NCBI GenBank assembly: GCA_964558645.1
Contig: CAZLEV010000002.1
Span: 96,001 to 160,000, forward strand
DNA from: an uncultured archaeon
GTDB taxonomy: Archaea > Asgardarchaeota > Thorarchaeia > Thorarchaeales > Thorarchaeaceae
Direction of reading: 5' to 3'
Length of the DNA: 64,000 bases
Shown here: in pieces, positions 2,536 through 24,721 of the stretch
Layout of the letters: the number at the start of each line of letters is the position of its first letter
Numbering within the stretch: position 1 is the stretch's first letter
Translations under genes and position numbers: made by a program
Notes under the pieces: generated by a model
What the model was told of the DNA's origin: nothing
The model's database searches: none
What the model saw: the letters and a program-made list of their open reading frames with translations, nothing else

Positions 2536-3204
2536 AAGAAAAGGGGGAATCCAACAATGTCCATGGCATCGTAGAGAACGGGAAGTGAGGTGGAGGAAGA
2601 AGCGGCGGGGCTCCCCACATTCACCCCTCCCCCATTCGCGCCGAAGCTCCTTCTGCAGAGAGATCTTGTCGAGCTCTTCCATTGTCTGCTTGAAGTCCTC
2701 GGTCAGCTCGAACTCGGGAATCAGGCGGATCCATTTCACGAGTTTGCCTTCTTCAGCCTTGAAGACATCAGAAACACGAATATCCGCAATCGGGACATAC
2801 TGAGTTTCGAATCCTTTGTCTTGCAGTCTTTTCAAGAGCTCCTCGGCCCTCATCATCCCCAACCTCCGTTCGGTCTCCTGACGCCTAAGGATTCTTATGA
2901 TTTGCTTCTTGATGTCAGGCAACTGCTTCAATTCCTCAGACTCTTCTTCACTGAGTGCACGCAAGAACCAGCGTAACTCCCCAACCTCTACGCCCCTACT
3001 GTCACGGCAATAATCGATTGTCTTGTCGATGAGCCAGTTGTCTAGGGCGTATTGGATGGCCTGATTTGCCAGACTTGGCTTGTTCAGGTCACCCTGAGAT
3101 TCAATCCTGTCTTTGAGAGCTTCTTCCAGGTCCTCAAGAGGTAACCCTCGCTGGCCGCACGTGTCCAGCAAATCCATTAGAATTGCGACAGCTCCATCTA
3201 TCAT
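2482..3204 (-). CDS. Winged-helix-like hypothetical protein, paralog of 16640..17230; C-terminus probably frameshift-extended
   Basis: Shares LANQAI, ALDNWLID, EESEELKQLP, LIPEFELTE and SLQKELRRE with the 16640..17230 product; 28-bp identical DNA at 2696-2723 and 16713-16740. Confidence 0.75.
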   Translation of the reverse strand: MIDGAVAILMDLLDTCGQRGLPLEDLEEALKDRIESQGDLNKPSLANQAIQYALDNWLIDKTIDYCRDSRGVEVGELRWFLRALSEEESEELKQLPDIKKQIIRILRRQETERRLGMMRAEELLKRLQDKGFETQYVPIADIRVSDVFKAEEGKLVKWIRLIPEFELTEDFKQTMEELDKISLQKELRREWGRGECGEPRRFFLHLTSRSLRCHGHCWIPPFLSLHVGTVVLLYQMLQRA

Positions 3205-3463
3205 CTTGTTCTCTCTCAGGTTTCTCCATATGCAATTTCAACTCATTGCCAAGTTCCTCCGACTGCGACTTCAGACAAGCCGCGGACACGATACCGATGA
3301 ATAGAGTCGAGAACACCACGAAGAGGACTAGGCCCCCGATGTTCGCGGAGGCCTCCGGGTATAGGTCAAGGGGGAGCATCGACGCGGTGGTCAGGACCAG
3401 CACGACGCGGAGCACAGCAATGAACCTGAAGAGGGCGACCTTCAGGCCACCATTCTCGGTCAT
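3134..3463 (-). CDS. Small membrane protein (2 predicted TM helices)
   Basis: Two hydrophobic stretches in 109 aa; GAGGTG SD upstream. Confidence 0.45.
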   Translation of the reverse strand: MTENGGLKVALFRFIAVLRVVLVLTTASMLPLDLYPEASANIGGLVLFVVFSTLFIGIVSAACLKSQSEELGNELKLHMEKPEREQDDRWSCRNSNGFAGHVRPARVTS

Positions 3464-6613: not shown

Positions 6614-6905
6614 CCCAAACACCACCGATATGGGGCTATGCTCTTCCCGGATTTCAGTCTTTGCTCGCGAGTACCTCGAAGTGACTAAATGAGCTGAATC
6701 GGCCGTTGTCCTGATGTTAGCACAAGAAATCAATGCGGGACCTCCCCGATTTGAAAACCTTCGCCGCCTTTCTTGTTCCGTGCGTAAGAAGAGGCAATCC
6801 CACTAGATTAACCAAAAGAGATCATCATTGCGGCAAACCAGATGGCAGGCCTAAGTCGGCCTTGAAGCTCGATGCAATGAATTTGACAGTGTGCCATGCC
6901 AGATC

Positions 6906-9385: not shown

Positions 9386-10225
9386 TTGAGGCTAACCACT
9401 AGACAGAGAAAGATGATTGAGAATCTTGAAAGAGGGGCAATAGTATGCCGAACTGGATTGCTCTCTAATCCCCTAGTTGGAAAACAGTCGAATTCTCTCG
9501 CGGATTCCATTATCTGTTTCGTTCACAACTATGCCCATGAACGACAGGGCGCCGCCCAAGGATACCGAACACTAGCGGCCCTCTCCGTTGAGAGGGAGAT
9601 TCCGCGGTCGTCCAGATACATCAAACCGTCGGATGTGAGAAGAGTTTGGGAAGTCTACAAGGAACTGGCTGGGAAGTACTTCCCCGATCTCTCACTCAAC
9701 CCCACGAACAATCCTATCAATGAAGACAAGGGTGTCCTGAGTGTTCTGTGTGAAGACAAGACTCCAAACCTTTACGGTCGTGTTACGAATCTTCTGACCC
9801 GCGGCGAAGCGAAAGCAGCGCATGATTTCATTAAACAGATTCGAGGTGTGGGAAACAAGATTGCCGCATTCTATCTTAGAGATATCGTATGCATTGAGAA
9901 AATCCCTGAAGATGAATTAGACACCATACACCTCATACAGCCTGTTGACACGTGGGTCCGACAAGCATATTCCGTGGTTATGGGAAAGAATCTGCCCCAA
10001 GACCAGATTGAAGCGATGAAGGATGTTGCAGATTTGTGCAAAGCAGCACAGTGTTCCCACGTAGAGTTCAATCAGGGAGCATGGGCCTGCGGTAGTCTGC
10101 TCGGCAAGGACATCTACCACCTACGGAGAATAGCAGAAGGATTTGATGACCGGATTCGAGAAAGCTTTGAAGAGGTAAAAAATCTCGCGAAAGGCATGGC
10201 AAAATACTTCGATACAGAGACCTAG
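9386..10225 (+). CDS. HhH-GPD superfamily DNA glycosylase/AP lyase (island-encoded)
   Basis: HhH motif IRGVGNKIAAFYLRD with the lyase Lys, and PVDTWV with the catalytic Asp. Confidence 0.75.
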   Translation: MRLTTRQRKMIENLERGAIVCRTGLLSNPLVGKQSNSLADSIICFVHNYAHERQGAAQGYRTLAALSVEREIPRSSRYIKPSDVRRVWEVYKELAGKYFPDLSLNPTNNPINEDKGVLSVLCEDKTPNLYGRVTNLLTRGEAKAAHDFIKQIRGVGNKIAAFYLRDIVCIEKIPEDELDTIHLIQPVDTWVRQAYSVVMGKNLPQDQIEAMKDVADLCKAAQCSHVEFNQGAWACGSLLGKDIYHLRRIAEGFDDRIRESFEEVKNLAKGMAKYFDTET

Positions 10226-10407
10226 AAATCCCGTCTACGTCGGTATTGACACGCCTAATCAGAAACCCGTTTGATATGGTGTCCACATCCGGTTATCTGT
10301 CCATCGGCATAGTCCTCATCCGGAGCGTAGCTCCAACCTCCATGAGGAACAGACATATCTGTCAAAGTCTACATCTGTGATTAACCGAGAGTTGGGGGTT
10401 CATCTGA

Positions 10408-11499
10408 ATGATCTCTACCCTTTTCTATAGGCCAGAGAGAAGAATCGAGGATATGCTAACCCATTGGTTTCTTGCCTTTCTTGACCGATTAGCTGAACAT
10501 CAATCCCCTGCTTGTAGGGATTTGTTCGAAGAACTGGGGTTCAAGCTCGGAGATAATTGGAAGAAGGATTTCAGAGTTGAAAGCCAAGTCAATATTGGAG
10601 AGGGGCGAAGAATCGATGGACTGATCACTGGTCAGAAATATGTTATCGGGTTTGAAAACAAGATAGATGACAAGCACAAAATGAGCCAGATTCGAGAGTA
10701 CTACAAACTACTCCATGAGAAACATGAGCAAGATTGTGCACTCCTGCTGACGTTCGACTGGAATACTCAAACAAGAAATGAGGTAGAAAAACTGATTCGA
10801 GCGGGAGAGGTCCCCGAAAAGGATGTGAGACTTGCGACTTGGCAAGACGTCCACCAAATTCTCATAGATATTGCAGAGAAAAGCCGCGGCACCGGGTTTG
10901 CCTCATTCCTGTGCCGTGAAATGGCCCGGGTATTGGAGAAAATGAAGATGAAATCATACACTGGAATCAACAAAGAACAGATAAAATCCTATTTTGATGT
11001 AAAGCAGAATCTTTCGGTGCTAGACCAACTAATTAGAGAATCGGTGAAGGCTAAGTTTGACTGGTTATTGGAAGGGAGCGGTTCGGATGGTAGTCTTACA
11101 AGAAAGAGAATCACATTTCCTTTCAGAAAGGGCGAGAAGAGCACGTTTCTTTTCTTTAGGTTGGGTGAGGACTCCCTTCACATTGGCGTTCGATGCCCTA
11201 GGCGGAGTACAGATCTCGAACGACTCAAGGAGAGATTGGATTATCGGTCCCTTCTGAACATACTAGAGAAGTCGAAGGAGTATGAGGTGTATGGTTTCGC
11301 GCCCGCATTGGACAAATCACATGGATATGAGGAGATTAGGCAGTTGGATGGCAAACCGAAACTGCATGATCGGCTCCAAGTTTCGAAAGAAGTGCGCCTC
11401 GAAGAAATGAGTAGAAAAGATTTCAAGGACCACATAAAAGACGAGATAGACTCATTGGAAGGTCTAGTCGTTTTTCTCCATCAAACACTCGTAGAATAG
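10408..11499 (+). CDS. PD-(D/E)XK nuclease superfamily protein (PDDEXK_4-like N-terminus)
   Basis: EDMLTHWF...VESQV...RRIDGLI...VIGFENKI...QIREY...TWQDV pattern. Confidence 0.8.
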   Translation: MISTLFYRPERRIEDMLTHWFLAFLDRLAEHQSPACRDLFEELGFKLGDNWKKDFRVESQVNIGEGRRIDGLITGQKYVIGFENKIDDKHKMSQIREYYKLLHEKHEQDCALLLTFDWNTQTRNEVEKLIRAGEVPEKDVRLATWQDVHQILIDIAEKSRGTGFASFLCREMARVLEKMKMKSYTGINKEQIKSYFDVKQNLSVLDQLIRESVKAKFDWLLEGSGSDGSLTRKRITFPFRKGEKSTFLFFRLGEDSLHIGVRCPRRSTDLERLKERLDYRSLLNILEKSKEYEVYGFAPALDKSHGYEEIRQLDGKPKLHDRLQVSKEVRLEEMSRKDFKDHIKDEIDSLEGLVVFLHQTLVE

Positions 11500-12233
11500 A
11501 CAAACTAGGTCCAGACAGTCTAATGGTGAGCATACAGCTCAATCGTGAGCTGCACACCCTCCAGCCCCACTAAGTGCGACTGAATACCTCGAGAACAGTT
11601 CGCAGAATACTCTGCTCACCGTCGAGCCAATCGGCAATCCATCGGAGCGCCATCGCCGAATCTGTTTCCGAAGTCCAAATCCTGAAGCGAGCCTTGGCTT
11701 TGCCCAGGCCCAAGCGGCGCAGATGACTGCGTACTCCATAATTGACAACAATATTTCTAGAACGAATGCTGGAGTTATGTTAACTACAACCACTGTTCAT
11801 TTCTCGAGCCGCGTGCATGGTCAACAGAGGACTTGTAGCCGCTGCATCATCCCATCCATCATGGTAAGGATTCATTCGTAGAGCCACGATAAAAGAGCTA
11901 CTTGTACGTACTCTTCTACCAGGAGGTCTGGGACATCCATGTCCCAATGAAAAGGACTGGGCTAGCAACCTTTGCTCTGTTCTAGCTCGGGAGAAGAAGC
12001 AACACCGAAAATCTCCTTGATAGAGTTGTTGGAAAACGTGGAGCGCAACTGTATTTGTCAACTATGTTTTCGTTTCCGTGGAATAGTCGATTGTGTGACT
12101 AGGAAAGAAGCGTCCAAGATAGGTCCTGCTTCTATTCATTGACTCTAGAGGAGTTTCTATGCGAAAAGGATTTGAATGATGGCATAGACTAGCCGGTGAG
12201 ATTCCACCGAAGTAGTGAGGGATAGACTATTGA

Positions 12234-13283
12234 CGGCAAGAGGCCAAAAAGCTGCTAAGAGAGATTCTAGAGGATTCCGACGATGAGTCGGTATCAACAA
12301 GTAGTCTTCTCAGAATGGCCTTGAGAGCAGCCGAGCTGCTTGACCCAGAAAGCGATGAGCATGTTTGGATAGCGCTGGAACTCCAAGGCTATCCTCAAGG
12401 AGGTCTACTGAAAGAAGAAGACACTGTTCCGCCGAAATATCGAACCCCACTGTACAGGTGGGCCGATCTCTTGGCAAGTGGTCCAGAACCAAGAATAACC
12501 TACAGCCCGCCCGATTCAGACCTTCTAGAAAGGATACACCGGGCAAATGATGTCAGATCCATCACATTCTTAGTAAGTGAACCAATCGAGGTTCTTGAAG
12601 AGGCAAATACTCCTGTTTTTCGTTCGGATTCCATTGTTCAAGATGATGGTTTCAATAAGACAATCGTAACTTGGGTTGCGACCATGCCCGTGTATCGCAT
12701 GCAGAGTATCGTCAAGGCAGTCAGGTCACGAGTCCACGCTTTCGCACTCACAAAGCTCGTTTCTATCGAGTTCGGAGAAGCGACAAAGCATTTGCTTGAG
12801 GGAAGCAGAGTGTATGTTGCAGAGAAAATGGAAATCCTCAGCCCAGATTTGCTAAGGGAATTGCTTGAAACATTGGAGAAACAAGAGAGTGGAAGAACTG
12901 ACATCAACTCCAGAATAGTGGTTCAGAACTGCCTGACTTTCGTTCAGAGGATAACAGATATACTACTACGCGACAGCATGATTCCCGAGAGTGAATCAAG
13001 ACCCTCAACCGGCCAAACCCGAAACAAACTAAGCCTAATTCTTGCTTGGGCCAAAAAGAATAGTACCAAAAAGCTTGATGAAGAAAGAGAGTTGGTGAAA
13101 AGGACCTTCAATCACTTCTTCTTCTACTCGAAATCTCTTCAGAAAACAATCGATAAACAACGCCACAAGGATCCGATTCTCGTTAGCAAGGATGAAGTGG
13201 ACAGAATCCTCGTCTACCTCCTGACTTGGCTTGCCGACCTACTCAGAATATTAGACCACGCAAACTATGAATGGGAATCCTAG
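12234..13283 (+). CDS. AbiTii-domain protein (abortive-infection associated); 5' end apparently disrupted
   Basis: LLRMALRAAELL...WIALELQGY...VPPKYR matches the AbiTii N-terminal pattern. The frame is open from 12234 (RQEAKKLLREILEDS...), upstream of the first ATG at 12315. Confidence 0.7.
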   Translation, partial: RQEAKKLLREILEDSDDESVSTSSLLRMALRAAELLDPESDEHVWIALELQGYPQGGLLKEEDTVPPKYRTPLYRWADLLASGPEPRITYSPPDSDLLERIHRANDVRSITFLVSEPIEVLEEANTPVFRSDSIVQDDGFNKTIVTWVATMPVYRMQSIVKAVRSRVHAFALTKLVSIEFGEATKHLLEGSRVYVAEKMEILSPDLLRELLETLEKQESGRTDINSRIVVQNCLTFVQRITDILLRDSMIPESESRPSTGQTRNKLSLILAWAKKNSTKKLDEERELVKRTFNHFFFYSKSLQKTIDKQRHKDPILVSKDEVDRILVYLLTWLADLLRILDHANYEWES

Positions 13284-13542: not shown

Positions 13543-15015
13543 TCACATGTAGAATCTATAGCTTGTTCTTGGCTCTGTTCGAGTTTCCGATTCGGACAAA
13601 AGACCACCAACTGTTCTTGAGAAGCTCAGAGTTATTGGCTCCTTGAGGCAATAGGCGGCCGAGTTCCAGTTCATCTTTGTTAGTCCGAGGATATCTTCGC
13701 ATAGTGCTTGGTTAGGAGAATCTCCGACGTGCTGCAGTAGAGACAAAGGGCGAGGTGTAGAAGGGCCCCAATACTGTCCCATAAACGGCACATATCCCTT
13801 CGTGTAGAGATGTAATCGATTATCGGTCGTAACCGAGTAGGTTCCTCGAATCGGTGGATGATCACCTGCCCTTAGCAGGCGAAAGCCGGATCCTCCAACT
13901 GCAACTAGATCGGATTGCTCAACACTATCTAGAGCAGATAGAACTCCATCGGATTCCTCCTCGCTGAACTTGGAGCTCTTGTGAATGACTACCTTGTGAG
14001 GAGGATGTCCCTCCTGCCGCCTATATGTGTCCAAGACCTGTTCAAGAAGCCTCTTGGCACTCCCCCTCTTCAGGTGTGGTTGGCGATCAGACTCCTCCTT
14101 TCTTGCCTTGCCGCCCTTTAGCACTAAGCCCTCACCACGGTGAGAGAATACCTGAGCAACACTGGTCTTGAGATCTAGATTCGTCTTTGACTCATAGAAA
14201 GAGATGCCGACAAAACACGTTCCGATGGAGGCATTGGCCAGCCGCCACGGATGACCACCAGCCTTGTAACAAAACGCAACAGCCAGATTCCAAGCAACTG
14301 TACACATATCCTGAACATTTGTTCCTAGGAGCGTCGACGGTCTGATAACCTGAGTCGGAATGCCCAATTGCATTCCCTTGGACTTGATCACTCTCCACAT
14401 GGAGCTGAAATGAATCTCTTCAGCCTCCTCTGTCATTACCTCCTCAAGTGCTTCATACTCATCATGAGGGTCAGTCCTGACTTTCCGGCGTTTCTTGGCA
14501 ATTGGCCGGCCGAACCTATCCCAATATTTCGTACATTCTTCTTCGAACTCGGGAGGTAATGCGACGACTACAATCTGAGGTTTCGGCTCCCTTTCAGAGA
14601 AATTCTGCAATTTCTGCTCCAGACAGCCATATGCGAATCTTACTTTCCCGTCGAAGTCCTTCTTTTCACTCAGCTGCTTCAATTCCTTGGCCGTGATTAT
14701 CTGGCAATCGGTCGTACTACATTCGATAGAAAAACCAAGCGGCGAATCCATCGATAGACCCGGGAAGTCTGGCATGAAGCCTTTTGACGGAGGAGACCAA
14801 ATAGGACGCGCAAGTCGTCCTATCAGATTGAGTAGCAAGTCACTTGTTCTCTTGGAGCCAATGACCCCTAGAGAAATGCGCATGGGTATTTCGGTGCCAC
14901 GGGGTAGAATAGGACCAAACAAGCTCAGGCCCGTTCTCTGGTCGATACACCGGTTTCCTCCGCCAAAGAGAAGCTCAACATCGGGAACAATCCCGACTTC
15001 GCTAATTCCAGACAT
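13543..15015 (-). CDS. ago: Short prokaryotic Argonaute (MID-PIWI only, catalytically inactive)
   Basis: ELLFGGG..ID...GLSLFGP N-terminus; MID pocket WRVIK...GIPTQVI...NLAVAFCYKAGGHPW; PIWI TCFVGISFY / VVIHKSS (catalytic Asp residues lost), PPIRGT, ILGLTKMNWN, EPITL; C-terminal YRFYM. Start set at ATG 15015, overlapping the upstream stop. Confidence 0.95.
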   Translation of the reverse strand: MSGISEVGIVPDVELLFGGGNRCIDQRTGLSLFGPILPRGTEIPMRISLGVIGSKRTSDLLLNLIGRLARPIWSPPSKGFMPDFPGLSMDSPLGFSIECSTTDCQIITAKELKQLSEKKDFDGKVRFAYGCLEQKLQNFSEREPKPQIVVVALPPEFEEECTKYWDRFGRPIAKKRRKVRTDPHDEYEALEEVMTEEAEEIHFSSMWRVIKSKGMQLGIPTQVIRPSTLLGTNVQDMCTVAWNLAVAFCYKAGGHPWRLANASIGTCFVGISFYESKTNLDLKTSVAQVFSHRGEGLVLKGGKARKEESDRQPHLKRGSAKRLLEQVLDTYRRQEGHPPHKVVIHKSSKFSEEESDGVLSALDSVEQSDLVAVGGSGFRLLRAGDHPPIRGTYSVTTDNRLHLYTKGYVPFMGQYWGPSTPRPLSLLQHVGDSPNQALCEDILGLTKMNWNSAAYCLKEPITLSFSRTVGGLLSESETRTEPRTSYRFYM

Positions 15016-16540
15016 CGTCTTCTTCCTCCCCGCAACCAAATTCCTGTTCCGTGATTTGATGGTCGTCTACGTCAAAGCTGTATTCTTCGAGCGTTGGCTG
15101 CCTTGCATGATATAGATTACAGACCGGACGTCTGATACGCTCCGAAAGGCGTTTCTGAAAATCTTCAGGAATGCCGAAGCCGACTTGGCAGTCTACAGGA
15201 CTAGCATCGATTTGAATTGGAGGGCCCCCTGTGGCTATTTCCAGAGTGGGTTTTCCCCCTGAAACCAGATTCATCCAAAACATGAGGTCGAATAGAAGGC
15301 GTCTGTTACCGTGTCGAGCCCAAGCTCCGGATGACAACTTCGTCATCAGTCTTGCCTTTACACGATTCTGTCCATCTGTCGTGAAGTAGAATCCGGGCTG
15401 CAGCATTAGGTAGTACTCGTCACCCATCTGCATAAACCGCAGCGAAATCCCCTGATGTTTCCAGAAGGATTTCTTCTCCTTCGTAAGCACCCGTGTTATT
15501 CGTCGCGTTCCAGGCTTCCACTCACAATAGCACTCAAGTCCGTCATCAGACGGAAAGAAGAACATCGGTCGCCCCGACCTACTTCGTTTCCACATTCCAA
15601 GGGACTTAAGATGAGAGTATGCTGATTCATTCAGTAAGTGAGTGAGCCATCTCTTCTTCTCAGAAGTGTCGAAGACCTCGGTAATTGGTTTGAGCCAGAC
15701 CGTATTGTCCGATTTCGCCTCGGCCAATGGGTTTTCAGTTTTGTTCAAATCAGAGAAGGTTAGTATTCTTCGTTCCCGCAAAATGAAAGGGTCAGGTCGC
15801 TCACCTATATCCTCCAGCAAGTCCCTGGCCCATCTGTAGTCAGTTCTGGCAGCATAGATAGACGTGGGAAATTCTAGCACACCATAGAGGTTTGTTACAA
15901 GTGTTTCTTGAAGGGAGGGTATTTCGCCCATTCCAGATAGTGCATCTGCAATCTGCTTTGCCGGAAGAACCAAGCGGGAAAGGGTACTCTGGACAAGCCT
16001 ATTGTCTGACTGAATGAACCGGTCTATTGTCAGAATATCCCCGCAATACACTTCGGATCTTGAAATGAATGACTTCAGGACATCAATATCCAGACCGGAG
16101 AGAGCTTCTGCAGCGGCCTTGTCTTCGCTCCTTGTATTCTTCTGAAGCACTTCTACCGCTCTTCCAAGCAAACCAAGTGCCTCATCCCAGTCGTAGTTCT
16201 CGAATACCTTCTCAAGGAGTTCGTGGTTTGAGAAGGACCGAGCGAAGTATATGAAGCGGAATCGATCTTCAGGCAGGAGCTTGGAGAACTTGAACAGTTG
16301 ACGTCCGAATGGAAGGAGGAAAGTTTCTGAGAAGGGTGAAACTCGCGTATTCTTGCATTCGACTAGGACCTTAGTGTCCTGTCTATCTAGGAAGATGATA
16401 TCTTCGTATGACCCTTCTATCGGGGATTCTACTATCTTAAGAAGCCCTTTCTGTTCCAAGAAACGAGAAACAGCATGGCGGTATTGTTCACCACTGTAAT
16501 GTTGCGCTTCCCGTCCCTTTCCCAGAGTGTAGAAGCCCAA
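15002..16540 (-). CDS. Mrr-like PD-(D/E)XK nuclease-APAZ fusion, effector partner of the short pAgo
   Basis: N-terminal GEQYRHAV...YEDIIF...VLVECKN. C-terminal half ETLVTNLY..LEFPTSIY...WKHQGISLRF...YYLMLQPGFYFTTDG...NRRLLFDLMFW is APAZ-like. Directly upstream of and overlapping ago; TTG start with GGAGGG SD. Confidence 0.85.
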   Translation of the reverse strand: MGFYTLGKGREAQHYSGEQYRHAVSRFLEQKGLLKIVESPIEGSYEDIIFLDRQDTKVLVECKNTRVSPFSETFLLPFGRQLFKFSKLLPEDRFRFIYFARSFSNHELLEKVFENYDWDEALGLLGRAVEVLQKNTRSEDKAAAEALSGLDIDVLKSFISRSEVYCGDILTIDRFIQSDNRLVQSTLSRLVLPAKQIADALSGMGEIPSLQETLVTNLYGVLEFPTSIYAARTDYRWARDLLEDIGERPDPFILRERRILTFSDLNKTENPLAEAKSDNTVWLKPITEVFDTSEKKRWLTHLLNESAYSHLKSLGMWKRSRSGRPMFFFPSDDGLECYCEWKPGTRRITRVLTKEKKSFWKHQGISLRFMQMGDEYYLMLQPGFYFTTDGQNRVKARLMTKLSSGAWARHGNRRLLFDLMFWMNLVSGGKPTLEIATGGPPIQIDASPVDCQVGFGIPEDFQKRLSERIRRPVCNLYHARQPTLEEYSFDVDDHQITEQEFGCGEEEDDVWN

Positions 16541-16639: not shown

Positions 16640-17230
16640 TCACCCTTCCCGCTCGCGCCGAAGCTCCTTCTGCAAGGACATTTCATCGAGCTCTCTCATT
16701 CCCTGGTTGTATTCCTCGGTCAGCTCGAACTCGGGAATCAAATAGTGCCATCTTACTAGTTTGCCATCCTCAGTTGTGAAGAAATCGGCTACATGGCCCT
16801 CGACCATTGGTACAGACTTCGCTTCAACTCCTCTTGCCCTGAGCGTTTCCAGAAGGTTCGTTGTTCTTATCGTTCCAAGATCATCTTCGGTTTCTTGCTC
16901 TCTGAGTATTCTTATGATCTCCTTCTCGATCTCAGGCAGTTGCTTCAGTTCTTCAGACTCTTCCTGTGTGAGCTTCCGGCAGAACCAGATGAGCGGTCCA
17001 ACCTCTACGCCTCTCTCATTGTGGCGATAGTCAATGGTCTGGTCGATGAGCCAATTGTCCAAGGCATGCCGGATAGCCTGATTTGCCAGATTATTGTCGT
17101 CTAAGTCACTCTCGGCACGAATCCTATCAGTCAGAGCTTGTTTCAAGTCCTCAAGAGGTAGTCCTCGTTTGTCGCATGAATCCAACAAATCCATGAGATT
17201 CGCCACAGCTCTATCCAACATCTTACTCAC
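16640..17230 (-). CDS. Winged-helix-like hypothetical protein (last gene of the backbone operon)
   Basis: 196 aa; GTGA overlap with the upstream gene; paralog at 2482..3204. Confidence 0.75.
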   Translation of the reverse strand: MSKMLDRAVANLMDLLDSCDKRGLPLEDLKQALTDRIRAESDLDDNNLANQAIRHALDNWLIDQTIDYRHNERGVEVGPLIWFCRKLTQEESEELKQLPEIEKEIIRILREQETEDDLGTIRTTNLLETLRARGVEAKSVPMVEGHVADFFTTEDGKLVRWHYLIPEFELTEEYNQGMRELDEMSLQKELRREREG

Positions 17231-20200
17231 GAATAGATTCCTCCCTTCTGGATTTTAACTCCTCGTCTAATCAGCTCCGCCCTTATCTGCGACACCTGCT
17301 CGTGTCTCTCTTCCAAGTAACCACTAAGTAGCCTTCTCTTCCTGACATCATTGGGAGGAGCAATGAGAGCCAGCCTGATCATATCGTCGATAGTTCTAGT
17401 GCGAGCATACCATGAAATCGATACCCTATCGCTCTTGCGCATGAGTCTAAGAGTGCCTGGAGAAATGGCCACCTTGACCCCCAGTGTGGCGGCGATGTCT
17501 TGCATGTTCTTTACCAGTCTGTTCGGATTCTGCATGATTTTCTCTGCGATGCTTAGAGCAAGCCTACTAGTGACCCTGTCCGCGGACTTGGCAAGTCTAT
17601 CGATATCACCCCATTCTAGGCTCCAGCATTTTCTCCTCGGTTTTCCAAACTCTTTGATGAGTGCTACCTCCTCGTTGTCGAGGATTGGCTCGAAGTCGTA
17701 GGCCTCCCTCTTGTTCCCTGCATTCAGAGCATTGGAGAATGTCCAAGAGATTGCCCTCGGCAACACCGTGCCATCCTGTGGAATCGAGTCCTCGATGATT
17801 GCGCAGAGAGCCTCCCAAGACTCCCGGAACAGTGAGAGGTCTATCTCCGGATTGTGAATCGTCTTGTCGCCTGTGGGTAGACCAAGTTCCTGTAGTACCC
17901 GTCCAATCACGGCAGGAAGATGAGCGATGTAGCAATTATGGTCTTTCCGCCACTGAGGGTCGAGAAAGACTTCACCTAGCCTCTGTACGGTCCGTTCAAA
18001 GATCTCGATCCGCGCGATTTCAGGCTCATGGTAAGCTACCGCAGCGGTCTTCTTCAGACTCCCATCGCAGACTATCGTCGCGATTACCCTTGCCCAGATC
18101 ACCAACAGGTCCTCTCTAGAGGGAAACTTCGGATTGGGGATACCACCCATCCCATTCTCTGTTGTGATCTTTGAAATCTCGCCCTCAAGATCGCGGATCG
18201 ACCGATTCGATACACTAAGAAGAAACTCAAGATGGTCACCGCGGATTCGCATCTTGGTGATGTTGACTCGCGGGACCTTGTGCGGACCGAATACATCGTC
18301 CATGAGACGCTCGAGTCTCTCAGCAGTGCTCCGCAACTCGCCGCCTCTGTTTCCGGTAAGAGCCTCCTTGACATCCGCGAGCAACGACGCAAAGGAATTG
18401 ATATCGTTGAAGTAGAAGAACTGGTCATGGTACATATGGAGCAGGCTCATCCGATCGGGATTCAGCTCGAACTCGAGAACCTCCCGTTCACTGATTCTGC
18501 GGATATATCGCTCGGTGTTCTCAAGCCTTCCCTCTAGGGGAAGTCTCAGTTTTCTTTGCCGATACCACTCCTCGAGAATGCGCTCCTCCTCCTGTCGCCG
18601 TAGGTCAGAGATGTCACGTGGTTCCGTATCTCGCAGCCACTGACTGATTGTTGTGTCGGACACCTCGTACTTCAGTGCCAAGTCCTTTTGTAGGGTCTCC
18701 GGTTCGGCTAGCACACTGAAGTACTTCTCGCACAGCTCGTAGTCGACCTTCTTTTCCCGCCCGTGTCTGGCCGCCAGTTTCCGTACATCGCCTGTTGACT
18801 CGATACAGACCTCAGGCGGCCCACCATTGGCCCCTACGTACAACCGTTTCAGCTCCAGTCGATGAAGTTCGCTCAGGAAACTAGGGACTTCCTCTTCTCT
18901 TGCCCATCTACGTATCTTCCTCACAGCTATGTTGTGCTCCTCTGCGAATCCCTTTTGATTGACCTTGCCCTGTTCCAGGGACAACTTCAGTTTGAAGAAC
19001 ACGCGCACGTCATTATCTCGATCATCGAAATCCAGTCGAAATCTGAGATGCTGATGCCGTGCAAGGGACTCCTCGTACTGCCGCTCTGTGACAATGATAC
19101 AACGCTTGTCCCAAGAAAGATTCTCAACTGACTCAAGAGGATTCTCTCTCACACCTGCGCCAGAGTTGCCAGAGAGATTGTTGAGCTGACCTAAGAGAAT
19201 CTCTGCCCAACGCCGTTCCACCTCCAAGTTCCAGATGTCCTTCACAAGCTCGGGTGCGTTGGCGTCGTCTGCGAGTTTCTCGAGATTCTCTCTGTCAATC
19301 CCGAGCTCCTCGGACAGCTCATCAAGGCCTTCGGGGTCTTCCAAGTTCTCAAGCGCCTCTCTCACCCGTATGAAAGTCTCTGCATCCCGAATCTTCTCAT
19401 CTTGGTCATCGTCGTCAATCGACTCTCTGTGCATCTTGAGATGCTTCTCTAGGTCTTCTGTCTTCATGGAATCCTTGATTGCATTCCGTATCTGTTCCTT
19501 CTCCTCTTCGGAAAGTTTGTCAAACTCCTCCTTAAGCACCCTCCTGAGGCGTTCCTCTCGCGTTTCGGGGAACATCGACGGCCACACAGGGTCGCCGTCA
19601 GGAAACATAGTTGAGCGTCCTCCGAATCGAGTAGTGTGTTCATTGTGGGTGTTTCTTCTATCCCTGTTAGCCTCGTCCTCGTCGACTGCATCCTCTCTCT
19701 CCGATGTGTTCTCAGTGGGAGCCTCTTCCCTCTCCTCAGTGGCATTCTCGCATTCCGCTACATCAGTCCCAACATCAGGTTCAGGTGATTCTGCCTGCGT
19801 GGCATCATCCCTCGAGTTCTTCTCGGGCTCCATTCCCTCAGGAACTTCCATGCCTTGGGGATTCGGGGTTTGCTTCTCCTTAGACCCCATATCCTCTTCA
19901 ACGGTTCTGATATCGTCTTCCTCGGCCTTCTCCGGTGCTTCCTCCGAAGTGTCTCGTTCTTTCGACCTTTTGTCTCCCTCACTCTCTTCGGATACCTCGC
20001 TCGATATTTCTTCGGAAACCTCTTCACTTGTCTTCTCCTCAGTACCAATCTCTGAATCCTCAGTCTGCAAACGCTTCTCAGTAGCCTCCTCCGGATCTGC
20101 GGTGCTCTCAACCTCCATGGTGACTGTGACCTGCTGGCTCCCCGCATTCTCCTCCACATGGTCTTCATTCCGCTCCGATTGATCAGTGTCTGATTGCTCG

Positions 20201-20640
20201 GGGGTCTCTTCAGGCTCGGCATGAATCCGGCCCTCCCCCTCGTCTGACTCGAGTTTTTCCTTCATTTCTGACCTGTACTGCTCCTGGAGTTGTTCGGAGG
20301 TGTCCTTTATCTGAGAGGCCCTCTCAGATGGTGATTCGCCAGTGTTGTCACCGACATCATCCACCTCGGCTGCGCCACTATTCCCCACATTCTCTTCTTG
20401 CTCCAGTTCCTCCCTGAACTTGCGGACCCGCGCATCAACATCAACTCGTTCCAGTTCCTCCCTGAATTCACGCATCCGTGACTCAAGCTCTTCTTCGGCC
20501 TCGATTTCTCCTCTAAACTCCCTCATCTGATTCTCAACATCGAGCCGATTCTCCCGTATATCCTCAGTATCAGAGTGTTCTTCGTTAGCCTCATTCTTAT
20601 GATACTCCTTGCCTTGCCCGGGGTTGTCGACCACAGCCAC
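17227..20640 (-). CDS. Large protein: acidic disordered N-terminus, about three HTH-like repeats, C-terminal LAGLIDADG-like domain pair
   Basis: About 350 aa E/D/S/T-rich N-terminus. HTH-like LSEELGIDRENL, FAEEHNIAVRKIRRW and LALKYEVSDTTISQWL. LAGLIDADG-like ARVIATIVCDGSL and AIIEDSIPQDGTV. Start probably GTG at 20640 or 20634, just after the ATPase stop. Confidence 0.7.
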   Translation of the reverse strand: MAVVDNPGQGKEYHKNEANEEHSDTEDIRENRLDVENQMREFRGEIEAEEELESRMREFREELERVDVDARVRKFREELEQEENVGNSGAAEVDDVGDNTGESPSERASQIKDTSEQLQEQYRSEMKEKLESDEGEGRIHAEPEETPEQSDTDQSERNEDHVEENAGSQQVTVTMEVESTADPEEATEKRLQTEDSEIGTEEKTSEEVSEEISSEVSEESEGDKRSKERDTSEEAPEKAEEDDIRTVEEDMGSKEKQTPNPQGMEVPEGMEPEKNSRDDATQAESPEPDVGTDVAECENATEEREEAPTENTSEREDAVDEDEANRDRRNTHNEHTTRFGGRSTMFPDGDPVWPSMFPETREERLRRVLKEEFDKLSEEEKEQIRNAIKDSMKTEDLEKHLKMHRESIDDDDQDEKIRDAETFIRVREALENLEDPEGLDELSEELGIDRENLEKLADDANAPELVKDIWNLEVERRWAEILLGQLNNLSGNSGAGVRENPLESVENLSWDKRCIIVTERQYEESLARHQHLRFRLDFDDRDNDVRVFFKLKLSLEQGKVNQKGFAEEHNIAVRKIRRWAREEEVPSFLSELHRLELKRLYVGANGGPPEVCIESTGDVRKLAARHGREKKVDYELCEKYFSVLAEPETLQKDLALKYEVSDTTISQWLRDTEPRDISDLRRQEEERILEEWYRQRKLRLPLEGRLENTERYIRRISEREVLEFELNPDRMSLLHMYHDQFFYFNDINSFASLLADVKEALTGNRGGELRSTAERLERLMDDVFGPHKVPRVNITKMRIRGDHLEFLLSVSNRSIRDLEGEISKITTENGMGGIPNPKFPSREDLLVIWARVIATIVCDGSLKKTAAVAYHEPEIARIEIFERTVQRLGEVFLDPQWRKDHNCYIAHLPAVIGRVLQELGLPTGDKTIHNPEIDLSLFRESWEALCAIIEDSIPQDGTVLPRAISWTFSNALNAGNKREAYDFEPILDNEEVALIKEFGKPRRKCWSLEWGDIDRLAKSADRVTSRLALSIAEKIMQNPNRLVKNMQDIAATLGVKVAISPGTLRLMRKSDRVSISWYARTRTIDDMIRLALIAPPNDVRKRRLLSGYLEERHEQVSQIRAELIRRGVKIQKGGIYS

Positions 20641-20647
20641 GACCCCA

Positions 20648-23600
20648 TCAAGCAGTTCCTTGGATTGCCCGCCGGATGGACTCCGCCATGAGCACATCCT
20701 GTGGAGCATCAAGAATCACCACAGCACGCTCAAACAACCACTTGGCGACATGATGCGCATTGCAGCCCTCAGGGCCAAATTTCTCAGCGAATCGAATCAG
20801 CATACGTCTTATCTTGCCAAAATCCCCATCTACTGCCTCTCTTAGACTCTCGTAGTACATCGACGAAAAGCTATGCGTTTCGATTGCAGCCAAGAAGAAC
20901 CGTTGGGTTTCGGCATCAAGGTCTTGCTCAGTAGGCTGAGCTGTTGGGGCTTCTTCTTGCTCCGCGACCTCAGACGCATTCCATTTCTTCTTGAGAAGTG
21001 CCAGTTCTTCCTGGACGATATCTCGGAAGGGAATGGATATCCGCCTATCAACATGCGAGCTGTACTCGTCAACGACCTTGAGCAGAACTGTGATTCGCTC
21101 TTCGTATAGCTGTTCTTGAAAGTCGAGCTGTCTTCGTCCGAAATGCGCCCACAACTCATCCACCAGTATCTCGTGCCGTGCAGCCTCTGACTCCTCCATG
21201 TTATCAGGACGCAGTACCTGAAGGAACAGGCTCACAAAAGGCTCAGAGATTGAATCTCCTGTTATGCGTTCAAGAACAACCCAGAGCAGTTCGGCTAGCT
21301 TGGTCAGCAATATGATCTTTTTCCGCCGCAGGAAAGGTATGTAGTTCTTTACGAGAAAATCGGAACGAGCAAAACTCACTACATTCCATGCTACTCTGAG
21401 GTCGATCTCAACTGATGCACCGGTCGGTGATTCTGAGGTCTCAAGAAACACGAAGGGATTGCTGAGCCCTACACTGATTGCAGGGTACTCCTTGTAGACC
21501 TGCGCCATGCGTTCTCGTACCCAGTCTCTCAGACTGGTTTTCGTCCCTGCCCTGACTGGTACTCTCTTTGGAGGAGGATGCACCGAGATGTACATGGGTT
21601 GCCCATCACCTGCGAACTTGGCAATAGCATGTCCCACAGGCAGAGAACCGACCATCTTCAGCTGCTCCTCGTTGAGGTCAAGTTTCATCGCTATCGTTCT
21701 CCGGTCTACACCTGTAGACAGACGATGTAAGATGGTGGTGACCGGGAGGCTCATGGCGTGTTCGTCAAGACTAGAGGGAAGTTGATCTAAGATCACAACC
21801 CCCAGACCATTACGACGCGACTCGCGCAGTACCTCCACAATGGAGCGGATGGCATGACTTCGGGCTGCGTGCTCCTCATCCACCGATCGCTCACCAGTTC
21901 GAACAAGAAAGTGATGAGCCTCCTCCAAAACGAGCAGGAACTGCAGAGGTTTCGCCTCAGCCATCTCCAGAGCTTTTGCCTGGAAGTACCGAGCCACATT
22001 GACGACGAGGAGTGAAGCAAAGAGTGCCCGCTCATCTGCGCTTAGACCATCCAATGCTATGATGGTGGGAGCCGAGACCAGCTCCTCGACAGTCATGCCC
22101 GTCAACGTGTTGAATACCCGGTAGAGTGGACCACTCATCAACGACCGGAATCTGCCCCGAAGTGCACCAATGAGGTCCTGGTTCTGCCTGTCACTGTATT
22201 CAAGGACATCGCATTCGAGGTGAACGACAGAATCAAGGAGGTCAGACATAAGGACGGCATGTCCGTGGTCGTTGTGATCGCGGTCGTACTGACATCGTTC
22301 GAAACTGTTGTCTATGCACATCTCCGTGTACTCCCTCACGATTCCAATACTGGGTGCAGAGGCGATGTAGGCCGCCTTGACATCAGCTAGGATGGTATTC
22401 ACCAACACCCCCTCCGAGAATTCATGAGGGTTGAACCGCAGTGGAGCCGTCTGCTCATCGCCGGGAGTGAAGAAGCGCAATGAGGGGATCTTGTCGGCAA
22501 GAGAGACATAGTCATCAGTCAGGGTGGGGGTCAAGACAAGAAACGGTATCTTGGACCCGTTAACAGAACTGAGTATTCGCTTGACAGTGGACGTCTTACC
22601 GCTCCCAGTATCACCGAATACCTCCACATGGCGAACCATGTCTTCAAGCGCGAAGTGAACGGGGCCCACCTTAGCCCCTGACTCATCAAGCTCCGAGCCC
22701 AGACTGAACCGGCCTGCCCCTTGAGGGGGTGTGGTTCTGCGCCGCGGGGTTTCGGCCGGTGGATTCTCCGCAGACTGAGTCTTGCCTGTTACGAATCGCG
22801 CACGATTGACCACCTCCAGGCCAAGATCAATGGGTGGGATGACCATAACAGGAACAATCTCCTCTGGGACCATGAGGGTCCAGTTGGGAGGTTGCCTGCC
22901 ATTTGCCAGTGCCCTGAGAGTGTTGTTGTTCTTCTTGGTCTTGATTGACAGTCCAGTGCGCTCAGATGATGGTCGAACGCGCCCCATGATTGCCGCCAGT
23001 ATATCCCTTGCACACTGCTCTGCAATACTACGGGTATATTCCTCACATGTCACAGAGATCGACGCCTTACACGCATCAGTTGCCTCGTGGCGCCTTATCT
23101 GCATGGTCAGGTCTTTCGCCTCGTTGGACGCATCAATGTCTGTGAAGGTAACAGATTCGTGATTGTTCTGTCGAAGGAGGCCACCACCCGTATGCGAGAC
23201 CGTCCTTGATGCACGGCCTGTCGCGTACTCGAAGTCCCGTTTCAGCCCATTGAGTTTCCACCGTGACGGACGCGCTGGCTCGACCAGGACTTGGATGGAC
23301 CCTGCGCCAATACTTCTGAGGTATCCGATAGCAATAGTCAGTCCATCGGCCGCCTCTTGGCCGACTTGGACGGGAGCAAGTGGACCGTCGAGGTAGGCAG
23401 TGACCTCGGCATCTCGTGGACTTTGCTCGTCAATGACAAGCTCATTGTGCGTTGTCAGAGTAAACCCCTTGAGAGAACTTGACAGTATATTGTGAAGCTT
23501 CCAGACTCTGTTTCGTAGTTCGGACGTGTCCTCAGCATAGGTGAGATAGATGAGACGGAGTTTCCCTACGGTCCGCTTCAACATGAATCCGAAAGGGATT

Positions 23601-24190
23601 CCGCTCATCCGCACGGCCCTGACTATCTGATAGAACATCTCGGCACGATGGATCGCTTCCTCCCTTGTGTCACCGTCCGCCACATACGTGCTGGGTATCT
23701 GCGTCACCTCCACACCTCCAAACACCTTCTTGCTTCTCCCGATGAGAGCTGCAAGCGCCCTGCCAACTCGTTGGAGTATGCTCCTGCCTGTGGTGTCCTT
23801 CGAAGCCGCCAGAATGGAATGCTTGCTGTGTACGTAGAATGGGAAAGAAACCAAAGCGGTTCCCACCCCCAGAGGGGCAGAAACCTTCTGGAATGCGACC
23901 AGACAGTCCAGAACCAATCCATTACTGCGTTCAAGCATCAAGGTTGACAGGAACAACACAGCCGTTAAGGGCGTGTATGTCTGGGCGGTGGGCTTCATGA
24001 GATTTGCTCCACATACCCACTTGTCAGATAACCGAAAGAGTCCGGTCATGACAGACGTATTCCAGAGGGCGGGTGCAAGCGCCAAAAGGGCTACCGCAAT
24101 GCCCATAGCCGCCATCGGGAGCAATCCGGAGAAGAACTGTGCTCTTGCCAGACTATCGACTCTGTCTGGCGTTCCTCGTGGTTTCAACAT
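20648..24190 (-). CDS. Membrane-anchored HerA/VirB4/FtsK-superfamily ATPase
   Basis: N-terminal hydrophobic segments; RHVEVFGDTGSGKT (Walker A), LRFNP, LLVLEEAHH (Walker B), RESRRNGLGVVILDQLPS; GGAGGT SD. Confidence 0.9.
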   Translation of the reverse strand: MLKPRGTPDRVDSLARAQFFSGLLPMAAMGIAVALLALAPALWNTSVMTGLFRLSDKWVCGANLMKPTAQTYTPLTAVLFLSTLMLERSNGLVLDCLVAFQKVSAPLGVGTALVSFPFYVHSKHSILAASKDTTGRSILQRVGRALAALIGRSKKVFGGVEVTQIPSTYVADGDTREEAIHRAEMFYQIVRAVRMSGIPFGFMLKRTVGKLRLIYLTYAEDTSELRNRVWKLHNILSSSLKGFTLTTHNELVIDEQSPRDAEVTAYLDGPLAPVQVGQEAADGLTIAIGYLRSIGAGSIQVLVEPARPSRWKLNGLKRDFEYATGRASRTVSHTGGGLLRQNNHESVTFTDIDASNEAKDLTMQIRRHEATDACKASISVTCEEYTRSIAEQCARDILAAIMGRVRPSSERTGLSIKTKKNNNTLRALANGRQPPNWTLMVPEEIVPVMVIPPIDLGLEVVNRARFVTGKTQSAENPPAETPRRRTTPPQGAGRFSLGSELDESGAKVGPVHFALEDMVRHVEVFGDTGSGKTSTVKRILSSVNGSKIPFLVLTPTLTDDYVSLADKIPSLRFFTPGDEQTAPLRFNPHEFSEGVLVNTILADVKAAYIASAPSIGIVREYTEMCIDNSFERCQYDRDHNDHGHAVLMSDLLDSVVHLECDVLEYSDRQNQDLIGALRGRFRSLMSGPLYRVFNTLTGMTVEELVSAPTIIALDGLSADERALFASLLVVNVARYFQAKALEMAEAKPLQFLLVLEEAHHFLVRTGERSVDEEHAARSHAIRSIVEVLRESRRNGLGVVILDQLPSSLDEHAMSLPVTTILHRLSTGVDRRTIAMKLDLNEEQLKMVGSLPVGHAIAKFAGDGQPMYISVHPPPKRVPVRAGTKTSLRDWVRERMAQVYKEYPAISVGLSNPFVFLETSESPTGASVEIDLRVAWNVVSFARSDFLVKNYIPFLRRKKIILLTKLAELLWVVLERITGDSISEPFVSLFLQVLRPDNMEESEAARHEILVDELWAHFGRRQLDFQEQLYEERITVLLKVVDEYSSHVDRRISIPFRDIVQEELALLKKKWNASEVAEQEEAPTAQPTEQDLDAETQRFFLAAIETHSFSSMYYESLREAVDGDFGKIRRMLIRFAEKFGPEGCNAHHVAKWLFERAVVILDAPQDVLMAESIRRAIQGTA

Positions 24191-24591
24191 GTATACCTAT
24201 ACCTCCTGTAACGGGGAGGGCGGACCCGAGCGGCCCGCATGCCCCGTTTCTCATTCACCACAGCATTCGCGAGGAAAGAGATAAGATGTAGGTCGGATAA
24301 CAAAATGGGTTATCCTCAGCCCTCTCCGAGCCTTAACCGTTAAGACGTCCCCGTTATTTCTATTGAGCGCCAGTAGCTGCTGAAATAGTAGGAATGGCGG
24401 TTATGAGGTTCTTTTCGGAATGTCAATTGGACAAATGTATACAATGAAACACGCCCCGACCGACCTGTTGATTGGCGTCGCTATGGCATACGATCAACAA
24501 TGCCTCACTCCCGTGCGAGCCTCCGTCTATAGCGAACAGGAGTGGCAAGGAACACGGCCATCACACCCGACAGAAACACCAAGAGAATAGG

Positions 24592-24721
24592 TGGCGGGAC
24601 CGCCCCGATTCGAACGGGGGAACCCCAGCTCTCCGCAGACGACTGAAGTCTACCGCAGGCTGGTGCCTTATGTACAGCCCTGGGGGGAAGACCTCCAGAG
24701 ACCATGCTAGACTACGGCCCC
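24592..24721 (-). tRNA. tRNA-Arg(GCG) with two introns (D-loop 24672-24701; canonical 37/38 at 24631-24652), CCA encoded
   Basis: Minus strand reads GGGGCCG TA GTCT AGCATGG[30 nt]ATA AGGC A CCAGC CT GCG G[22 nt]A GCTGG GGTTC CCCCG TTCGAAT CGGGG CGGTCCC G CCA. BHB geometry at the anticodon intron. Confidence 0.93.

Follow-up and report, generated by a model that had tools for sequence, protein, structure and literature searches.

HerA-type motors that work beside nucleases are already familiar, and HerA moves double-stranded DNA. In Thermus thermophilus the island ICEth1 is bounded by repeats of a tRNA-Ile end, and TdtA, its ATPase, is needed together with the adjacent nucleases for DNA donation (PMC5365140). 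CedD, which combines transmembrane (TM) segments, an N-domain and a HerA-like ATPase, is essential for DNA import (PMC11868833). Here we describe three coupled genes (the trio), encoding a HerA-type ATPase, a giant nuclease protein and a small protein S, in a stretch of 64,000 nucleotides from an uncultured archaeon of the Asgard family Thorarchaeaceae (positions 96,001 to 160,000 of contig CAZLEV010000002.1, assembly GCA_964558645.1). This stretch, the window, corresponds to C2:96001-160000 of a metagenome-assembled genome (MAG; genome label G000) of 3.63 Mb in 37 contigs, which is 93% complete. Together they make up the conserved core of a family of gene islands without integrase for which we found no earlier description, and we propose, at slightly less than even probability, that the trio drives the movement of these islands. 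The trio genes are the following:

20648-24190, minus strand: HerA-type ATPase gene, open reading frame (ORF) of 1180 amino acids
17227-20712, minus strand: gene of the giant nuclease protein, ORF of 1161 amino acids from a TTG; the protein is likely to have about 1137-1139 amino acids
16640-17230, minus strand: gene of small protein S (S1), 196 amino acids, GTG start

The true start of the nuclease gene is probably a GTG near 20640, because the ortholog was called at 1139 amino acids; the gene overlaps the ATPase gene, or begins 4-8 nt past it if this GTG is used. The GTG start of the small gene and the TGA stop of the nuclease gene overlap by 4 nt (GTGA). The ATPase start lies 401 bp from the 3′ end of a tRNA-Leu(CAG) called by ARAGORN, in agreement with a preliminary description made from the letters of the window, which had placed three coupled minus-strand genes with a GTGA overlap about 400 bp from a tRNA. 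In the sister genome of the same genus (G131) the orthologs are 90% (ATPase), 85% (nuclease protein) and 69% (small protein) identical, with ratios of nonsynonymous to synonymous divergence (dN/dS) of 0.28, 0.24 and 0.15, respectively; on these grounds all three ORFs are taken to be real genes. Synonymous divergence (dS) was 0.18 for the ATPase, 0.33 for the nuclease and 1.24 for the small gene, and 0.2-0.4 for the flanking core genes. Pfam, NCBIfam, PADLOC and PHROGs contain no named system of this composition, as had been supposed, and the literature search gave analogues and no description of the module. Known superfamilies supply the parts; the module itself was described in none of these sources.

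The giant nuclease protein is composed of the following regions:

19183-20625, minus strand: acidic low-complexity N-terminal region, residues ~30-510, Asp plus Glu up to 37% per 100 amino acids
18478-19335, minus strand: helix-turn-helix (HTH) array region, residues ~460-745
17230-18480, minus strand: conserved C-terminal domain of ~415 amino acids, an alpha/beta lead-in followed by a double LAGLIDADG core
17287-18123, minus strand: double LAGLIDADG core, residues ~864-1142, with the catalytic-position acids D883 and D980

The model of the C-terminal domain, predicted from a 44-sequence alignment (mean pLDDT, the predicted local distance difference score, 94.2), consists of two alpha-beta-beta-alpha-beta-beta-alpha half-domains, which form a saddle. 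Structure search with this model returned 15 chains at Z ≥ 8, and ranks 1-20 were all LAGLIDADG-fold proteins, among them I-Tsp061I (2dch, Z 17.7), the TliVMA intein endonuclease (17.4), PI-PfuI (1dq3, 17.0), WhiA (8dy9_I, 15.3) and I-DmoI (2vs8, 14.6); Foldseek agreed (5e-6 to 7qsu). The paired LAGLIDADG motifs noticed in the preliminary description thus belong to a genuine LAGLIDADG fold, with conserved catalytic acids. D883 is kept in 43 of the 44 sequences, and position 980 is acidic in all 44 (Asp in 33, Glu in 11); K/R950, N954 and K1125 are also conserved. Because the acid closing each LAGLIDADG helix is conserved, the domain looks catalytically competent and, unlike WhiA, is probably active. 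Similarity to Pfam LAGLIDADG_3 was marginal (9 of the 44 members, best E 0.0011). A sequence-only PDB search with the nuclease domain gave no real match, and a word-based homolog search with it gave only four proteins, in clusters all named 'hypothetical'. Among 292 cluster representatives the ~415-aa domain is nearly always C-terminal, and the N-termini are very different.

Two clear HTH motifs lie at residues ~579-606 and ~672-698, where weak HTH_28/HTH_3 matches (581-606, 675-698), and also LacI, were obtained; matches to HTH_23/Sigma70_r4 are strong in relatives. Of the 'about three' HTH-like repeats described before, these two stand, and the third, near residues 470-495, was recognised by eye only. 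The acidic, disordered N-terminus described at the same time corresponds to the low-complexity region listed above. Nor were intein splice motifs missed in the preliminary description, since no Hint or intein Pfam family matched the large protein at E ≤ 1. An intein was rejected on the architecture as well: the protein stops ~19 residues past the LAGLIDADG core, and its N-terminal side consists of HTH and acidic sequence. A WhiA-type transcription factor was also rejected; the fold matches, yet the catalytic acids are conserved and the HTHs are N-terminal.

With the archaeal monomeric LAGLIDADG enzymes (I-Tsp061I, I-DmoI, PI-PfuI, TliVMA) the domain shares the fold (root-mean-square deviation 2.3-2.8 Å over 163-193 residues), the acid closing each helix, and membership in a multi-copy, patchy and often pseudogenised family. 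In contrast to these homing enzymes, the window protein lies outside any intron or intein, carries in addition a ~120-aa lead-in, the HTH array and a ~480-aa acidic tail, and is encoded by a gene translationally coupled to genes of a membrane ATPase and a predicted inhibitor.

The small protein, previously described as resembling a winged HTH, was modelled (pLDDT 89) as two winged-helix domains followed by a long C-terminal helix; its residues 1-88 match winged helices at Z of about 10, so that the tandem winged helix is supported by model and structure search. Full-length Foldseek matches were weak, to tandem winged-helix proteins such as Nse3 and ScpB. The sequence-only PDB search gave no real match, and the protein atlas search nothing useful (best score 0.87). 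The protein was found only in close Thorarchaeota relatives.

Co-folding of the LAGLIDADG domain with the small protein from alignments built for this analysis, a check that had been suggested in the preliminary description, predicted binding. The interface score ipSAE was 0.86, 0.83 and 0.83, as against 0.00 for three controls; the mark used had been calibrated on solved complexes (reached by 58 of 80) and mismatched pairs (2 of 110). The runs share at least 91% of their contacts, with a partner pLDDT of at least 87. In the numbering of the nuclease domain, the predicted interface includes residues 139 and 236-238 (D883, D980), residues 204-207 (the GDK motif, with K950) and, in the second half of the saddle, the beta-hairpins at 336-358. 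The small protein makes these contacts with both of its wings and with its C-terminal helix. It is therefore predicted by the model to cap the DNA-binding face and active site of the nuclease, and is read as a putative inhibitor.

The ATPase consists of N-terminal TM segments (~20-125), an N-domain (~150-480), a P-loop core (~500-860) with Walker A (GDTGSGKTS, 526-534) and Walker B/acid (VLEEAH, ~753-758) motifs, and a variable helical C-domain (~900-1180). Pfam DUF87, the HerA central domain, matched at 5e-7 (30.5 bits, cutoff 23.2). A PDB search with a profile of 19 ATPase relatives found HerA-clade chains at 4e-17 to 1e-9, among them HerA 8yho (4e-17) and 4d2i (2e-16). Sulfolobus HerA was matched, as were the HerA components of SIR2-HerA, DUF4297-HerA and TdpA. 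FtsK, EccC and DotL were matched through the P-loop only. G526, G531, K532 and E757 are invariant among the relatives, as are other motor residues. By these sequence comparisons the ATPase is a member of the HerA clade of the FtsK-HerA superfamily. Most full-length relatives have ~4 hydrophobic helices within the first 130 residues; the window ATPase has one strong and two or three weaker ones. The TM-anchored, HerA-like character assigned to it earlier was confirmed by these helices in the relatives and by the DUF87 match above cutoff.

NCBIfam gave partial matches to CedD, HerA and anti-phage HerA. The best was CedD (4.5e-15), which aligned to the C-terminal half only. Membership in CedD/CedB/VirB4 was rejected at 55.3 bits, far below the equivalog cutoff of 600, even though the layout of TM segments, N-domain and ATPase is alike. 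Identity with EssC/EccC of the type VII secretion system (T7SS) was also rejected: there is a single P-loop domain here, the EccCb match was only 0.043, and Pfam revealed no WXG/LXG family. In PADLOC only generic HerA models matched, partially (up to 7.5e-16).

Set against the described systems, the locus resembles each in part. Like ICEth1, it is an island with tRNA-3′-end direct repeats that has a membrane-associated, presumably hexameric ATPase of the HerA/FtsK superfamily beside nuclease functions; however, ICEth1 is bacterial and has no inhibitor gene, TdtA lacks TM helices, its nucleases are NurA-like and the type IIG restriction enzyme Tth111II rather than homing-type, and the sequence kinship is at superfamily level only. 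The ATPase shares the TM anchor, N-domain and HerA/VirB4-like ATPase with CedB, CedD and VirB4, but adds a C-domain of ~280 amino acids, is paired with a nuclease, and has no CedA/VirB6-like channel or pilin genes nearby. HerA-NurA, SIR2-HerA, DUF4297-HerA and TdpAB also place a HerA-clade motor beside a nuclease or effector with which it presumably cooperates, and are the closest solved sequences; in these the HerA is soluble, the partners are not homing-type, and there is neither an acidic tail nor a winged-helix inhibitor. Integrase-type integrative and conjugative elements likewise have direct repeats of the 3′ end of the target gene at their boundaries, and differ in that the present element contains no recombinase gene.

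The ATPase was found in at least 49 of 301 Asgard genomes and in at least 37 of the 76 genomes of the family; these counts are lower bounds, two candidates having been scored per genome. The LAGLIDADG domain occurs in 80 of the 301 genomes (46 of the 76 in the family), in up to 6 copies each, many of which carry internal stops or lie at contig ends. About 30 ATPase matches have a match to the domain directly downstream on the same strand. At 23 of 23 mapped Asgard loci the ATPase gene is immediately followed by a gene of 590-1900 amino acids, with an overlap or a gap of at most ~25 nt, and in 17 of the 23 cases this partner is a member of the present LAGLIDADG family. At locus L036 it has HTH arrays and a Pfam LAGLIDADG_3 match (2e-7), and its cluster-mate is that of L034, which was left out of the scan. 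Another partner has an HTH array and an end without assignment, and the 1696-aa partner at L042 has no Pfam match. At L037 (G103:C10, 10644-12500) the same slot is occupied by a different homing-type nuclease, a protein of 618 amino acids in which an HNH nuclease is combined with seven NUMOD3 motifs; direct repeats of 358 bp (84% identical) flank this locus. From this pairing and these partner types, the constant of the family is, as far as sequence goes, a membrane HerA-type motor with a modular homing-type site-specific nuclease. The wide co-occurrence of the pair and the swapping of the nuclease tip between loci (LAGLIDADG subfamilies, NUMOD3-HNH) answer two points raised in the preliminary description, namely whether the genes occur together elsewhere and whether the C-terminus of the large protein varies.

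Sixteen of 21 ATPase-linked partners have an acidic N-terminus, which is absent from the two free-standing copies in the window genome and from most of ~15 others. When 35 LAGLIDADG domains were placed on a maximum-likelihood tree, ATPase-linked and free-standing copies were interspersed as though by chance, with 12 label changes against a shuffled mean of 12; at least 10 of the changes are forced by supported branches. The 'solo' label was judged from 3-5 kb of flank and may be wrong for some copies; L047, supposedly solo, proved to hold a complete trio. Compared across lineages, the nuclease domain is 77% conserved, as compared with 46% for the ATPase N-domain and 38% for its C-domain. The small gene was detectable at ~10 of the loci examined, at two of them with no ATPase nearby; elsewhere there are unrelated small ORFs or none. 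Apart from the trio, only a ZIP transporter, beta-helix surface proteins and one membrane protein recur among the neighbours; these have the look of host synteny and were rejected as additional module genes. One other trio lineage keeps a common gene order (ZIP transporter, tRNA-Glu/Met) in several genera. None of the mapped loci contained a capsid gene or any other viral gene, and a provirus or packaging reading was dropped, PHROGs having given only generic ATPase and HTH matches.

The trio stands at the head of an island marked by repeats of a tRNA 3′ end:

24592-24719, minus strand: tRNA-like gene; ARAGORN tRNA-Leu(CAG) at 24592-24681, with a better 5′ acceptor strand beginning near 24719
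24587-24615, minus strand: proximal copy of the tRNA 3′-end repeat, from the T-loop to CCA plus a few nt
6735-6757, minus strand: second copy of the repeat, the distal boundary of the trio-bearing segment
G000:C2:95829, 93381-93409 and 91639-91664, direct: three more copies, to the left of the window

The unit repeated in the island corresponds to the final ~25 nt of the tRNA-like gene. The five direct copies, of 19-29 bp each, split 29 kb into four segments, which make up a tandem array. The displaced copies all read TCAAAT (TTCAAAT in three of the four in the window genome), and the gene-proximal copy TTCGAAT; degenerate copies are found at matching places in other genomes. The tRNA gene named in the preliminary description is present as an ARAGORN call, but its identity is doubtful: the Rfam tRNA model did not match even at E ≤ 10, the ARAGORN D-arm is poor, and only the T-arm and the 3′ acceptor end are canonical. 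Read from the sequence, a 5′ acceptor strand that pairs better (GGGGCCG) is present ~38 nt upstream of the ARAGORN call, which points to a degenerate gene or to an unusually placed intron. In the sister genome the supposed anticodon arm is wholly different and both ends are conserved. The genome has another tRNA-Leu(CAG) at C2:19567-19654.

Other features of the island are the following:

13543-16540, minus strand: two coupled genes directly downstream of the trio, 512 and 498 amino acids, no Pfam match
12315-13283: AbiTii-like protein, cargo of the trio segment, just under the Pfam cutoff
10408-11499: PD-(D/E)XK_4 nuclease (Pfam), cargo of the trio segment
3776-6733, minus strand: DEAD/Helicase_C protein of 985 amino acids, starting right at the tRNA-end repeat
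3269-3463, minus strand: ATPase remnant, the first 65 amino acids with two TM helices; 74% amino acid and 88% nucleotide identity to the start of the L017 ATPase
2482-3204, minus strand: orphan small-gene paralog S2, 63% amino acid identity, frameshifted tail

The cargo at 9386-13283 of the trio-bearing segment includes the PD-(D/E)XK_4 nuclease and the AbiTii-like protein. A homolog of the 498-aa protein lies upstream of the ATPase-nuclease pair at L026. At L021 (263-2953) an 896-aa DEAD/Helicase_C protein adjoins a free-standing LAGLIDADG copy elsewhere in the window genome.

The ATPase remnant is located just upstream of S2, the start of which lies ~30 codons past the remnant in another frame. 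The rest of the ATPase gene and the nuclease gene are lost, and the whole is a decayed trio, in the segment adjoining the trio-bearing one. Paralogs of the small gene recur downstream of the trio: S1 and S2 at L023, S3 and S1 at L017, and S2 and S3 in the window genome. The same genome contains a second, diverged full trio at C2:298409-305846 (1020, 1242 and 217 amino acids, 4-nt overlaps), whose proteins are 24-29% identical to those of the first. A perfect direct repeat of 27 bp stands on either side of it; one copy falls within the 3′ end of the small gene, the other within an upstream piece of such a 3′ end. In the sister genome this second trio has lost its ATPase and nuclease genes by deletion and kept the small gene. 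A common recombination site within the small gene was considered and rejected, the 28-bp identity of S1 and S2 and the 27-bp repeat of the second trio being at different gene positions. At seven further loci the pair is enclosed by direct repeats, and one of the copies is often situated where the final gene of the module has its 3′ end.

Several other loci had repeats of their own. At L035 (G087:C49, 786-16950) direct repeats of 27-57 bp, at ~786, 9745, 11185, 13053, 13781, 16503 and 16876, surround the ATPase-nuclease pair in a manner reminiscent of the tRNA-end array of the window, and one of them overlaps the 3′ end of the nuclease gene. At L032 (12289-12365; G081:C140) a tRNA-Ala(GGC) abuts the stop of the LAGLIDADG gene, 3′ end to 3′ end, and a 166-bp inverted copy of this junction is found 1.2 kb away. 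At L027 (G146:C10) a 196-bp direct repeat of the nuclease 3′ end (7520-7715 and 14515-14710, 99% identical) flanks the pair and has the appearance of a duplication or insertion of very recent date.

The core genes that flank the island are 94-96% identical to those of the sister genome (M24 peptidase, hexapeptide protein, thioredoxin and DEAD/MZB helicase at one end; DUF1801 at the other). The distance from the tRNA-like gene to the M24 peptidase gene is 29 kb here and 14 kb in the sister genome; in the L017/L016 lineage this gene follows less than 2 kb beyond the trio, and the cargo differs among the three. Fixed synteny in the genus and the dS of the ATPase and nuclease genes, which are close to those of the flanks, indicate by sequence comparison that the trio has been vertically inherited under purifying selection since the species split. 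The small gene, whose dS is far higher, marks the edge of a recombining zone. An empty site or allele was sought in the three genomes of the genus and not found; all carry the trio or break at it. In the sister genome, L023:1-1265 (G131:C10) contains internal repeats (offsets 72-216 bp, ~80-86% identical) within a 754-aa ORF upstream of the island flank, which is probably a repeat-rich surface protein.

Pfam scans of the island ORFs revealed no recombinase. The genome has one PF00589 tyrosine recombinase, on contig C1 outside the island, and no PF00239 serine recombinase. Across the family, 28 of 81 genomes have any PF00589 match, and several genomes more than 95% complete have none; the contigs of the listed trio loci are free of such matches, and many trio-bearing genomes lack them altogether. 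The association with integrases expected in the preliminary description was accordingly not found, and adjacency to a tRNA is no rule, few of the 23 loci having a tRNA next to the pair. Fixed core-genome synteny, which had been named as speaking against the proposal, holds inside the genus, where the locus is fixed and vertical; beyond the genus the genes co-occur widely.

We propose, with a confidence that stops a little below even, that the trio is the engine of an integrase-free, site-specific mobile gene island, built of a homing-type nuclease, a DNA motor and a safety-catch inhibitor; the nuclease, the HTH array and the inhibitor are its best-supported parts. The HTH array and the double-LAGLIDADG domain would recognise and cut one long chromosomal site, here at or beside the 3′ end of the tRNA-like gene. 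Repair of the break from an island-bearing copy would insert the island and leave the displaced gene end as a direct repeat, and repeated rounds would produce the tandem array; we infer this homing route from the absence of a recombinase, the nuclease type and the repeat architecture. The membrane HerA-type motor, presumably hexameric, whose role is deduced from its family membership, would move or process DNA for island copying, either by pushing or pulling DNA across the membrane between cells, as TdtA or CedB/CedD, or by resecting ends, as HerA with NurA. Through its acidic tail the nuclease may attach to this motor. The small protein, seated on the saddle and active site, would serve as a safety catch in cells that still hold cleavable copies, and defence genes (short prokaryotic Argonaute (pAgo), AbiTii-like protein, nucleases) would ride as cargo. 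Turnover, seen as the decayed trio, the partly deleted second trio of the sister genome, flanking repeats and internal stops, suggests mobility at the sequence level. The broader claim is possible but rather unlikely: that this is a class of archaeal mobile elements, without integrase or transposase, in which the nuclease cuts a gene end, the motor unites donor and recipient DNA and the inhibitor silences the nuclease at home, driving defence islands into the same site of related Asgard genomes.

Several points weigh against the mobile island. Tyrosine integrases classically leave direct repeats of a tRNA 3′ end behind, and such an enzyme may have acted in trans, may since have been lost, or may lie on unassembled DNA of this incomplete genome. 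Neither a cleavage site nor an empty site has been observed, nor has a circular form or a transfer event, and the fixed locus in the genus and the flank-like dS give no sign, in the sequences compared, of recent movement. Classical homing destroys its target and needs no inhibitor, and the small gene is detectable at only ~10 loci examined. Homing itself needs no membrane anchor, and the current ATPase data are compatible with the moving of DNA or protein.

The preliminary description had offered two alternatives, a mobilisation apparatus and a secreted nuclease toxin with its immunity gene. Mobilisation is favoured by the tRNA-end repeats, accretion, decayed copies, flanking repeats and nuclease swapping, although integrases are missing; for the toxin, the predicted capping and the surviving orphan small genes fit an inhibitor or immunity protein, but secretion is unsupported. 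In its fuller form the latter reading is one of inter-cellular conflict, in which the membrane ATPase would export the giant nuclease into neighbours, perhaps threading its acidic N-terminus, the small protein would provide immunity, and orphans would protect against the toxins of relatives. We consider this unlikely. FtsK/HerA-superfamily ATPases do drive T7SS toxin export (PMC3482391), and in EssC-EsaD-EsaG, too, a membrane ATPase of the FtsK/HerA superfamily goes together with a large nuclease, a small protein that binds the nuclease, and orphan copies of the gene of that small protein. The capping of saddle and active site, the paralogous small genes downstream of the trio, their outlasting of the ATPase and nuclease genes at two places, the rapid divergence of the small gene relative to its neighbours (dS 1.24) and the swapped tip are all as such a system would have them. 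However, EssC has several FtsK-type P-loop domains and WXG/LXG substrates, neither of which was detected here, and the nuclease types differ. Neither a signal peptide nor a channel component was seen, and the ATPase core is closest to DNA-translocating HerA, not to EssC. LAGLIDADG and NUMOD3-HNH enzymes are long-site homing nucleases, and the HTH arrays point to a single specific DNA target; LAGLIDADG has 0 mentions among the toxin domains of the 2012 polymorphic-toxin survey. For a polymorphic toxin with its immunity protein, the tip swapping, the predicted capping and the orphan small genes would fit; against one speak the nucleases, which are of the homing type, and the conservation of the tip, which at 77% exceeds that of the N-domain (46%) and C-domain (38%) of the ATPase, the reverse of what such toxins show. 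The small gene is, moreover, absent at most free-standing copies.

In a domesticated host system for DNA exchange or repair, comparable to Sulfolobales Ced or Thermus transjugation, the nuclease would make a defined break and the motor would export or import DNA. Vertical inheritance at a fixed locus under purifying selection (dN/dS 0.24-0.28), the shared synteny of the other trio lineage across several genera, and CedD as best NCBIfam match with the same layout agree with this. We nevertheless regard it as quite unlikely in view of the patchy occurrence (ATPase in at least 37 of 76 family genomes), the multiple diverged copies, pseudogenes and deletions, the lack of pilin or CedA/VirB6-like channel genes nearby, and the 55 bits of the CedD match against a cutoff of 600. 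Defence against viruses or plasmids, by a HerA motor with an effector (as in SIR2-HerA, DUF4297-HerA and TdpAB) and an inhibitor released on infection, would suit a trio that heads an island of defence genes (short pAgo operon, AbiTii-like, PD-(D/E)XK) and an ATPase core whose closest solved relatives include anti-phage HerA (8j4u, 8xau, 8wet). It is improbable, since the PADLOC matches are partial and HerA-generic, with no model for the nuclease or small protein, homing-type nucleases with HTH/NUMOD arrays recognise a single long site and are ill-suited to such a task, and the flanking repeats and the swapping with free-standing homing-type genes point to mobility. Very improbable, finally, is that an ordinary tRNA-targeting tyrosine integrase, now lost or unassembled, built the island with the trio as mere cargo. 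The repeats are textbook att-like tRNA 3′ ends and the MAG is only 93% complete, but no integrase accompanies the listed trio loci, many trio-bearing genomes lack one altogether, and the trio, rather than any cargo gene, is the sole conserved content of such loci.

To our knowledge, little has been described of how genes move between cells of the Asgard archaea, the closest known relatives of eukaryotes. If the toxin-export alternative were true, the trio would be a new archaeal contact weapon built on a HerA/FtsK-type ATPase. If instead the trio is the engine of an integrase-free mobile island, the module would offer long-site nucleases with a natural protein off-switch and a new use of LAGLIDADG and HNH homing enzymes outside introns and inteins, and it would explain how integrase-free defence islands form and spread.

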